64,000 nucleotides of DNA from Candidatus Omnitrophota bacterium. GTDB taxonomy: Bacteria; Omnitrophota; Omnitrophia; Omnitrophales; Aquincolibacteriaceae. Below the pieces are notes generated by a model. The model was not told the DNA's origin. It made no database searches and worked only from the letters and a program-made list of their open reading frames with translations. Positions 5,456 through 6,711 of the stretch are shown here, piece after piece; position 1 is the stretch's first letter, and the number at the start of each line of letters is the position of its first letter. A program made the position numbers and the translations under genes. The DNA is taken from NCBI GenBank assembly GCA_043732705.1, contig JAYTHE010000006.1, positions 12,284-76,283 on the forward strand. Reading direction: 5' to 3'.

Positions 5456-5645
5456 TCAATACCTCTTCAAAGTCTTTCGAGACCAGCTTGATGAAATCAG
5501 ATATAATCCCGCTTCCGAGGACGGAAAAGTTAAAACTTAAAGTTTAAAGCTAAAAACCATAACTCAAAGCCCCTAAGCTGCCTGAAGAGTTTTGAGTTAT
5601 CAGTTATAGTTTTGATTTTTTAGTTATAAGTTTTGAGTTTTCTTG

Positions 5646-5718
5646 TGCCCGTAGCTCAACTGGATAGAGTACTGCCCTCCGAAGGCAGGGGTTGGTGGTT
5701 CAAATCCACCCGGGCACA
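5646..5718 (+). tRNA. tRNA-Arg (anticodon CCG)
   Basis: Hand-folded cloverleaf: acceptor GTGCCCG/CGGGCAC, D-arm GCTC..GAGT, anticodon stem CTGCC/GGCAG with loop CUCCGAA, T-arm GGTGG-TTCAAAT-CCACC, discriminator A; no encoded CCA. Confidence 0.85.
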
Positions 5719-5753
5719 TGCATCGCGAAGCGATGGCGTTTTGAATTATGATT

Positions 5754-5850
5754 CAAAACGAGCTCAACTATTCCGCCTTAGGCGGATAAATATTACGGGA
5801 GCGCTGCCCTCCGAAGGCAGAGGTTGCGCGTTCAATTCGCGCCGGGCACA
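5754..5850 (+). pseudogene. degenerate tRNA-Arg(CCG)-like copy: intact anticodon arm, T-arm and 3' acceptor strand, but no complementary 5' acceptor strand and a ~28-nt hairpin insertion (CCGCCTTAGGCGG) in the D-loop
   Basis: Aligned by eye against the upstream tRNA-Arg; shares CTGCCCTCCGAAGGCAG and CGGGCACA; T-arm differs (GCGCG-TTCAATT-CGCGC). Confidence 0.45.
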
Positions 5851-6033
5851 GTTATGTTTTTGGCTCTGTGCAAAGCACAACCGCCAGGAAAGAGTGTTCA
5901 ACAGTTTGTTTTTGAGTGTGAATTGAAGTCAGCTCGACGCGGCAACTATGTATTTTGGATTAAGTGGCTTGCGGTTGAGCGACCCGCTGCGCCAGAGCGT
6001 CAGCGCGGCGAGAGCCCAAGGAAAAAAGAATTC

Positions 6034-6711
6034 GTGAAGAAATTGTCTTTGCTGAAAAATTTAAAAAATCTTTTGATCATAGTCGTGGTGATCGCCGGAA
6101 TTGCCTGGGTAAAAGTTCTTTTCCACCGTGATCAGGTTTTGCGGCAGGTAATTGACCGGCTTTCCGCGGATACACGCGTTGCCGAAGTGGTGGTTACGAA
6201 AAGCGAGTTGGATGAAGTGAGCGGAAAAATTTTAACCACGATTAAATTTCTCGAGTACAACGCCAAAGGCGAACCGCTGGTTCCAAAGTATTTTACTTTT
6301 CGCGGCAATATTATTCAGTTTCAATCGCTTGTGATTCGCTTCAATGATAATTTGATCAAGAAAGGCGACAAGCTCAAAGGTAAAAGCGCCTATCTTTTTA
6401 TGAAAGCTTTTGTCCTGGATCCAAAAGATTTACAGGTTTTTGATATTACTCCGGCGCACACGGTTCCTGAAGGGTATCAAACCGATATTGAAGTGGCTGG
6501 CTTCGAACGTCAGCTTTGGGAAAAATTTTGGAATTACGCGCTCAATCCTCAGACCCGCGATCAGGTAGGAGTGAAGAACGCTCAAATTGAAGCGCCCGGC
6601 TCTTTGTTTCTTCCCGGAACTATTTACACTTTAAAAATCGAACATGACGGCGGTATCCGGATTGATACGCAGCCGATTCCACAAATTTTGAAAGGCGAAA
6701 AAATCGCATGA
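6034..6711 (+). CDS. hypothetical membrane-anchored protein (N-terminal TM LLIIVVVIAGIAW); the GTG at 6034 is preferred over the track's ATG at 5824, which lies inside the tRNA region
   Basis: ORF in track 5824..6711; in-frame GTG at 6034 preceded by AAGGAAAAAAG; stop overlaps queA start (ATGA). Confidence 0.45.
   Translation: MKKLSLLKNLKNLLIIVVVIAGIAWVKVLFHRDQVLRQVIDRLSADTRVAEVVVTKSELDEVSGKILTTIKFLEYNAKGEPLVPKYFTFRGNIIQFQSLVIRFNDNLIKKGDKLKGKSAYLFMKAFVLDPKDLQVFDITPAHTVPEGYQTDIEVAGFERQLWEKFWNYALNPQTRDQVGVKNAQIEAPGSLFLPGTIYTLKIEHDGGIRIDTQPIPQILKGEKIA

Follow-up and report, generated by a model that had tools for sequence, protein, structure and literature searches.

The question raised by this locus is what the second, tRNA-like stretch downstream of an intact tRNA-Arg(CCG) gene is, and how it came to lie there. 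The DNA analysed, hereafter the window, is 64 kb long and belongs to a MAG of an uncultured Candidatus Omnitrophota bacterium, and its own positions are given without a prefix; loci and contigs compared with it carry L numbers. The first-pass annotation described a tRNA-Arg(CCG) followed by a degenerate copy and offered three origins for the copy: a decaying tandem duplicate, a scar of integration or excision at the tRNA, or a tRNA-derived regulatory RNA. The description holds in outline. The intact gene (tRNA 1, 5645–5718, plus strand) is recognized by Rfam model RF00005 at 66.6 bits and by ARAGORN (call at 5644–5719), and a direct repeat of 52 nt and 81% identity (5667–5718 against 5799–5850) confirms that a copy follows. 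tRNA 1 is identical at 74 of 74 positions to the tRNA of relatives L003 and L212 and is proposed to be the functional or regenerated copy of the gene. The second element had been placed at 5754, 35 nt after the tRNA; its tRNA homology begins at 5761, 42 nt after the tRNA, and the stretch 5761–5850 is referred to here as element 2.

The spacer between the two (5719–5760) opens, directly after the tRNA, with the hairpin CATCGC-GAA-GCGATG (5721–5735, plus strand), which is followed by GCGTTTTG, overlaps a terminator-like site at 5726–5743 and itself looks like a terminator. The spacer is joined to the truncated copy by a 10-bp palindrome, CGTTTTGAAT-TATG-ATTCAAAACG, identified by repeat search and folding and assigned to neither strand; it is perfect, as had been reported, and spans 5737–5760 instead of about 5738–5759. 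Analogous ATG...CAT palindromes are found at the matching place 3' of the tRNA in L001, L003 and L081.

Element 2 itself begins with AGCTCAACT (5761–5769, plus strand), an exact 9-nt repeat of 5653–5661 that provides the 5' strand of the D-stem and the start of the D-loop. There follows an insert of about 27 nt (5770–5796, plus strand; alignment and blastn) composed of the hairpin TCCGCC-TTA-GGCGGA (5772–5786) and an A/T-rich tail. This is the D-loop hairpin noted at the outset, and its core, CCGCC-TTA-GGCGG at 5773–5785, occurs a single time in the window. The remainder of the copy (5797–5850, plus strand), resolved by repeat search, Infernal and simulation, comprises the 3' strand of the D-stem, the anticodon arm, the variable region, the T-arm (5826–5842) and the 3' acceptor strand with the discriminator base (5843–5850). 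The repeat spacings are 132 and 108 nt, a net difference of 24 nt that indicates an insertion in the D-loop. Exact blocks inside the 81% repeat amount to 17 nt (the anticodon arm) and 9 nt (CCGGGCACA), compared with 17–39 nt for the exact blocks of relatives. The anticodon arm CTGCCCTCCGAAGGCAG is identical in both copies (5672–5688 and 5804–5820) and the acceptor 3' strand CGGGCAC plus A at 5843–5850 is that of tRNA 1, both as first described.

The T-arm of element 2 had been called different but well formed, and the comparison bears this out: it reads GCGCG-TTCAATT-CGCGC, against GGTGG-TTCAAAT-CCACC in tRNA 1, with three pairs altered on both strands and all five pairs still Watson-Crick. 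In simulations with 10 random substitutions, at least three such double changes with every stem pair kept arose with p of about 3e-5. The T-arm of element 2 therefore either derives from a separate structured RNA or evolved as one. Outside the T-arm, the D-stem 3' strand, anticodon stem and variable segment match the tRNA of the closest relative, L001 (GAGCGCTGCCC...CAGAGGTT), and not tRNA 1, which is the tRNA of the more distant L003/L212 group. Together with the T-stem changes, these allele matches indicate that element 2 did not arise by decay of tRNA 1.

These features bear directly on the first of the proposed origins, a local tandem duplication, beginning at tRNA position 9 and ending about 40 nt downstream, that is followed by neutral decay and involves no foreign DNA. 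Element 2 does resemble a tandem-duplication pseudogene as a non-functional partial copy beside its parent in the same orientation, the period of 132 nt is short, and a left boundary inside the tRNA would explain the absent 5' acceptor strand. A GTTTTG-like motif lies 3' of both the spacer hairpin and element 2, and L044 carries a 38-nt repeat consisting of the last 12 nt of the tRNA and 26 nt of flank. However, three compensatory changes in the T-stem are very unlikely to result from decay, the allele matches are to L001, the spacer has no homology to the flank at 5851–5890 detectable by blastn, and the D-loop hairpin module is common to L084, L019 and L088. Duplication in place is therefore disfavoured, and we regard it as quite unlikely.

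Element 2 is not a tRNA. Upstream of 5761 there is no complement of CGGGCAC other than the one belonging to tRNA 1, and where a tRNA has a 7-bp acceptor stem the best fold of element 2 closes its junction with 4 bp, GCUC:GGGC, in agreement with the original report of a missing 5' acceptor strand. The canonical D-loop of 7–11 nt is replaced by about 27 nt with a hairpin of their own between AGCTCAACT and GGGAGCG. Neither tRNA finder accepted the element: ARAGORN made no call, and Infernal with RF00005 returned 21.8 bits, below the gathering score of 29 and over model positions 9–63 only. Rfam scans of the window region and 13 relatives recovered true tRNAs alone. The appropriate label for the stretch 5761–5850 in an annotation is tRNA-Arg pseudogene or att-like remnant, and not gene.

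Two further readings of the structure were considered and rejected. A permuted or split tRNA is contradicted by the downstream CTGTGC, which pairs over merely 5–6 nt with the acceptor 3' strand. An intron (group I, bulge-helix-bulge or other) is contradicted by the missing 5' exon strand and by the lack of any match to intron models. Non-canonical D-loop introns occur in tRNA genes of Archaea and Cyanidioschyzon. Group I introns at tRNA position 35/36 have been described in Patescibacteria (PMC13011429). Element 2 shares with all of these genes the presence of extra structured sequence in a tRNA loop, but it differs in having no bulge-helix-bulge, no group I core and no Rfam intron match, and since it has no 5' acceptor strand, splicing could yield no tRNA.

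The gene order around the tRNA is conserved. The series tRNA-Arg(CCG), 225-aa membrane protein, queA, tgt, yajC and secDF is widespread in the phylum Omnitrophota, the source of the homologues of the neighbouring proteins and of 80 of 80 related genome loci, and relatives carry a single tRNA-Arg at the locus with no bona fide tandem pair. The two checks set out in the first-pass annotation, tRNA finders on the second element and the number of tRNA-Arg genes in relatives, both left its description standing. The downstream ORF (6034–6711, plus strand) encodes a single-pass membrane protein of 225 aa and opens the syntenic block ORF-queA-tgt-yajC-secDF; it is context and not part of the element. 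It had been called an uncharacterised membrane protein, which is correct in that it belongs to no Pfam family, yet it is conserved across Omnitrophota with 2225 homologues. The deposited protein P0001 (5854–6711) is 285 aa long, so that its annotated start is the ATG at 5854, immediately 3' of element 2, and the reading frame crosses the conserved hairpin. As its homologues are nearly all about 210–250 aa long, mainly 224–225 aa, the true start is probably the GTG at 6034. Pfam identified CHASE2 cyclase, SpoIIE phosphatase, DUF3307, queA and tgt as neighbours of the locus and ten further ORFs as housekeeping genes, and among these 15 window ORFs no integrase or recombinase gene was found near the locus. 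No recombinase was seen in the relatives examined, and in L020 and L037, where the gap between tRNA and ORF is larger, the ORFs look like housekeeping genes when their translations are inspected by eye.

The sequence beyond element 2 also bears on its origin. The segment 5851–5885 (plus strand), GTTATGTTTTTGG CTCTGTGCAAAGCACAACCGCC, was recognized as the ancestral 3' flank of the tRNA from blastn, a four-way alignment and the sequence of L212. L003 and L004 match its last 28 nt (5858–5885) at 100% identity, and L212 does so at 96% (blastn). In L212, a tRNA identical to tRNA 1 is followed directly by GTTTTGTTTTGGCTCTGTGTAAAGCACAACCGCC, the motif that lies 3' of element 2 in the window, and judged by this junction L212 is an empty (attB-like) site. 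L004 is probably an empty site as well; it has an N-run (2544–2788) inside its tRNA, but the contig ends on either side share a 24-nt overlap, so that the gap seems to be an artefact of scaffolding at the repeat. The four-way alignment reveals an insertion polymorphism: the window, L003 and L001 hold different inserts, all of which end in ...CGGGCACA and then enter the shared flank, and L212 is empty.

Some additional observations concern this flank. The 28-nt hairpin motif TTTTGGCTCTGTGCAAAGCACAACCGCC (5858–5885) is identical between genomes whose adjacent proteins are about 65% identical, and it is located at 2932–2958 in L003, at 2849–2876 and again at 2920–2947 in L004, where it is duplicated, and at 194–221 in L212. 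A weaker second copy occurs in the window around 5949–5990. The CTGTGC of the motif has an alternative pairing partner in GCACAG of the acceptor 3' strand, and the motif may be a trailer or leader element. An N-run at or next to the tRNA-Arg/ORF junction, as in L004, is also present in L042 (about 2805–2905).

Of the three origins first offered, the scar is the best supported, through the empty site in L212, the inserts of relatives and the phage and provirus precedents described below. Element 2 is thus probably a non-functional, displaced or attR-like fragment of tRNA-Arg(CCG) that was left behind when DNA was inserted at the tRNA 3' end. In the proposed course of events, 5719–5850 would be a 132-bp insertion at the 3' end of the gene, with element 2 marking its far end. 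The incoming DNA would have carried a partial, hairpin-interrupted tRNA-Arg copy resembling a phage attP, and would have recombined with the chromosomal tRNA gene through either a site-specific (tyrosine-integrase-type) or a homology-anchored exchange. The tRNA at 5645–5718 would have been regenerated or retained and element 2 displaced, still attached to the original 3' flank, and a subsequent deletion would have left the 42-bp spacer alone. What the comparison shows is the insertion polymorphism, the repeats of the tRNA end and that element 2 is no tRNA; a recombinase, the direction in which the event ran and the subsequent loss of DNA are inferred.

Relatives supply many further examples of disturbance at the same tRNA. 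Another insert of about 190–205 bp occurs at or near the tRNA junction in L001, L003, L081, L084 and L209. It lies directly 3' of the tRNA in L001 and L003 (about 190 bp), and is about 205 bp long in L084; in these three loci it is bounded by exact direct repeats of 17–18 nt that run from the T-loop to the discriminator base. The contigs of L081 and L209 start inside or after the tRNA, leaving the distal copy of the tRNA end alone visible, and in L084 and L209 the insert sits past a copy of the flank motif and not directly after the tRNA. L033 has a 39-nt repeat beginning in the anticodon loop, and L022 has a divergent copy, derived from a different tRNA allele, that begins there too. Integrase crossover classically falls at two sublocations of a tRNA gene, the T-loop and the anticodon loop, and it is there that these repeats start. 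Short copies of the tRNA 5' end are present 110–190 nt upstream in L003, L004, L009, L013, L019, L030, L034, L046 and L084. Four close relatives (L082, L207, L208 and L211) are without a tRNA at the locus, and in six (L012, L026, L028, L032, L040 and L052) the tRNA-Arg(CCG) lies in inverted orientation with respect to the conserved ORF downstream. Exact partial tRNA copies of at least 10 nt within 320 nt were found in 16 of 41 related loci, compared with 2 of 41 in a reversed-sequence null, and the tRNA-Pro of the window, used as a control, has none. Taken across these genomes, the tRNA-Arg(CCG) locus upstream of ORF-queA-tgt is a recombination hot spot throughout Omnitrophota. As a relic, element 2 is of a common and ordinary kind; it is the hot-spot activity of the tRNA locus in this group that is unusual, and element 2 serves as a marker of it in a phylum known almost solely from MAGs.

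Individual loci show additional peculiarities. At L022 2827–2990, the resident tRNA-Arg has the unusual acceptor stem GCGCCTA/TAGGCGC and the displaced fragment keeps the usual CGGGCGC, which suggests that the whole gene may have been replaced by a foreign allele. L028 and L032 also hold 3' fragments of a different T-arm allele, together with CCGCCACA...GGCGG hairpins.

The arrangement can be compared with known tRNA-targeting systems. Integration of an island or prophage into a tRNA gene regenerates the gene and leaves the displaced fragment at the far end (PMC4383910). The window agrees with such an Islander-type attR fragment (PMC4383910), which marks the end of a tyrosine-integrase island or prophage, in that an intact tRNA is followed by a partial 3' copy in the same orientation that is continuous with the original flank. 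A relative has the empty-site allele, and the repeat starts of relatives match the classical crossover sublocations. It differs in that the window has neither island nor integrase and merely 42 bp separate the tRNA from the fragment, and in that the repeat is not an exact block but 81% identical, reaches the D-stem and carries a hairpin insert. Among phages, the attP of phiRSA1 is a 45-base 3' portion of tRNA-Arg(CCG) (PMC5694545). A blastn search of phages with the window segment matched tRNA-Arg(CCG) att sites at 84% over 44 nt, which is no more than the conservation of tRNA-Arg gives. Burkholderia phage Paku carries a partial, 5'-truncated tRNA-Arg(CCG) about 100 nt from its tyrosine integrase gene, in which a D-loop remnant (TCAACGGATAGAGTAC) is followed by a 38-nt insert and then by the anticodon stem through CCA. 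The Paku attP and element 2 therefore share the tRNA species, the 5' truncation and an insert between the D-loop remnant and the anticodon stem, whereas phiRSA1 and Paku are phages of Betaproteobacteria with complete genomes and element 2 is chromosomal and without phage genes. In IMG/VR, at least 20 proviruses have tRNA-Arg(CCG) copies whose 5' boundary falls exactly at the anticodon stem, and in the contig L357 a distance of 8.9 kb separates the full gene from the truncated one. For temperate phages, a truncated tRNA-Arg(CCG) copy is a standard site of attachment.

Several points weigh against reading element 2 as an attR-like fragment. A recombinase gene was found neither near the locus nor in the relatives examined. 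The DNA between the repeats is 42 bp long in the window and at most about 205 bp in every relative, and no real island was observed in any of them; the 81% repeat reaches 5' to the D-stem, beyond the typical identity block. Remnants of integrative elements of the CIME type (cis-mobilisable), or 'grounded' ones, were reportedly described by Pavlovic et al. in 2004. CIMEs are similar to the Omnitrophota loci in that att-like repeats flank DNA without recombination genes of its own and in that accretion and deletion at one att site would explain the arrangement, but known CIMEs are kilobases long and the units here measure 40–205 bp.

The D-loop hairpin module likewise recurs in other genomes. 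The module of the window is 96% identical over 28 nt to 2444–2471 of the more distant relative L084 (blastn), where the copy is upstream of the real tRNA, has retained its 5' acceptor strand and breaks off at the T-stem. Under an insertion, that position calls for a crossover 5' of the hairpin or a later rearrangement. Related two-hairpin inserts occupy exactly the same D-loop position in L019 and L088, and a related module is present in L179. The arrangement in L088 is like that of the window, with a tRNA-Arg, 13 nt and a 5'-truncated copy; among L084, L019 and L088, the module-bearing copies differ in the side of the tRNA on which they lie and in the end that is truncated. The broken copies of the window, L084 and L088 each have the anticodon stem of their resident tRNA, as would be expected from crossover or gene conversion within the tRNA. 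The recurrence of the module at tRNA-Arg loci fits a sequence that may have been borne by an element. A scan of viral contigs for the hairpin gave one match, an unrelated terminator, and a metagenome scan for GCTCAACT plus the hairpin gave about 120 matches, nearly all by chance or in coding sequence, with L088 and L179 alone being relevant.

That the hairpin module is nearly identical in distant genomes could, on the other hand, point to function, which corresponds to the third of the original proposals. Element 2 would then be a functional tRNA-like RNA, be it a leader or processing signal of ORF-queA-tgt, a decoy for tRNA-Arg-binding proteins or a degenerate member of a D-loop-hairpin family. 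It has an intact anticodon arm and an intact T-arm and can fold into a four-way junction, and the similarity of its module to that of L084 exceeds the 73% identity of the neighbouring protein. The same D-loop hairpin is also part of two tRNA-like genes, complete and in tandem, in L179, of the FCB group. Conservation does not support the proposal, however: the closest relatives are without the element, with L001 and L081 having the other insert and L082, L207, L208 and L211 having no tRNA, and homologous copies are truncated at different ends and placed on different sides of the tRNA. The fold z-score of element 2 is just −2.3 with the palindrome and −1.0 without it, and no Rfam family matches. 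A functional role for element 2 is, on this evidence, unlikely.

The same hairpins permit another explanation, in which small mobile or intron-like hairpins invade loops of tRNA-Arg (the D-loop, and the anticodon loop at 35/36) and break the copies they enter, while an intact copy is kept or restored. Inserts starting with (T/C)CCGCC follow CAACT in the window, L084, L019 and L088 and GTAGCT in L009, L013 and L034, with a degenerate CTGCC variant in L046; one such insert occupies position 35/36 of the partial copy in L033; and CCGCC...GGCGG hairpins cluster near the tRNA in many loci. Yet the module is found once in the 64-kb window, a complete interrupted gene was not found in Omnitrophota, and the matches of the metagenome scan are mostly due to chance. 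We know of no mechanism for such an invasion and consider it very unlikely, and an attR-like fragment left by an insertion continues to be the preferred reading of element 2.

Beside the module-bearing copies, conserved elements that start with the first 12–13 nt of the tRNA (GCGCCCGTAGCT) lie upstream of it in L009 (2695–2765), L034 (722–792), L046 (2720–2790), L013 (2550–2680), L003 (2528–2640), L004 (2396–2509) and L084 (2323–2433). Elements of the L009 type carry an inserted CCGCC hairpin within an inverted repeat (GCCCGTAGC...GCTACGGGC) made up of these nucleotides and the D-loop; those of the L003 type have an insert of about 55 nt followed by CAACTGG. L179, a metagenome contig with FCB-group genes nearby, carries its two tandem tRNA-like genes of about 100 nt at 2040–2275. 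They have a T-arm and all 7 bp of the acceptor stem, and are accompanied by a promoter-like sequence and a terminator. Their D-loop hairpin is 89% like that of the window, a hairpin of 7 bp with a 4-nt loop replaces the anticodon arm, and neither ARAGORN nor the Rfam tRNA model makes a call on them.

Repeats of this kind can break or mis-join assemblies, and a chimeric join at the repeated tRNA, introduced in assembly or binning, would also place a partial copy beside an intact gene. The same strain was assembled independently in Logan (SRR23617244), and there the sequence stops at 5689 (the end of L405) and resumes at 5989 (the start of L404); exact-protein searches for the strain yielded solely contigs ending to one or the other side of the region. 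The tRNA of L004 contains the N-run mentioned above. The Logan break falls after the anticodon arm of tRNA 1 and leaves a gap of 300 nt, which may reflect population heterogeneity or difficulty of assembly. An artefact is extremely unlikely all the same, with the sequence of element 2 being unique and not a collapsed repeat, and with analogous arrangements present in the independent assemblies of L022, L033, L088 and L084.

The larger insert of relatives contains a structured RNA candidate of about 166 nt, situated between the tRNA-Arg and the repeat of the tRNA 3' end (L001 2357–2522, L003 2760–2925, L081 78–240, L084 2657–2822 and L209 48–213). RNAalifold predicted 50 pairs from the five sequences, 24 of them with compensatory changes. 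The conserved loops are GAAG, GACUA and CAUGA, and the 3' end consists of the last 17–18 nt of the tRNA. In the predicted helix P1, the 5' end GTGGAWTTG pairs with the T-loop and the T-stem 3' strand of the repeated tRNA end, and this helix covaries with the T-loop of each genome. An excess of G-U pairs over A-C mismatches points to the tRNA strand as the one that would be transcribed. The candidate has no match in Rfam. In viral contigs, 14-mer and 20-mer matches were due to chance or absent and nhmmer was negative, as was blastn against phages. A covariance model of it (R1) matched neither the window nor other Omnitrophota loci, from which it follows that element 2 is not a diverged copy of this RNA. 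Separately, a guide-RNA reading of the 17–18-nt repeats (TnpB or CAST homing) was considered and rejected, as genes for a nuclease or transposase are absent and helix P1 engages half of the 'guide' in base pairs.

The size and structure of these inserts allow a more speculative proposal, namely that the 40–205-bp units found at this position in many Omnitrophota are not debris but complete miniature cassettes that home to tRNA-Arg(CCG) and carry structured RNAs. One such cassette would be the hairpin-interrupted tRNA-like module of the window (also in L084, L019 and L088, and as an intact tandem in L179), and another would be the ~166-nt RNA of L001, L003, L081, L084 and L209. We give this proposal a small chance of being correct; if true, the cassettes would amount to a new class of tRNA-targeting elements of very small size, or to functional RNAs that mimic tRNAs. 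The strongly covarying ~166-nt RNA and the recurrent D-loop hairpin module may each deserve a study of their own.

Two structures in the wider surroundings should also be recorded. Immediately 5' of tRNA 1, the window contains an A/T-rich imperfect hairpin of about 110 nt (5524–5642) with 53-nt arms that are 72% complementary and a folding energy of about −33 kcal/mol. It is composed of GTTTTGAGTTAT-like repeats, is limited to this genome among the loci compared, and gives weak matches to miRNA precursors in Rfam that are spurious. In L033, about 3.5 kb from the tRNA locus, the minus strand at 6253–6346 matches the Rfam DUF3800-V RNA at 43.6 bits, above the gathering score of 37.4.
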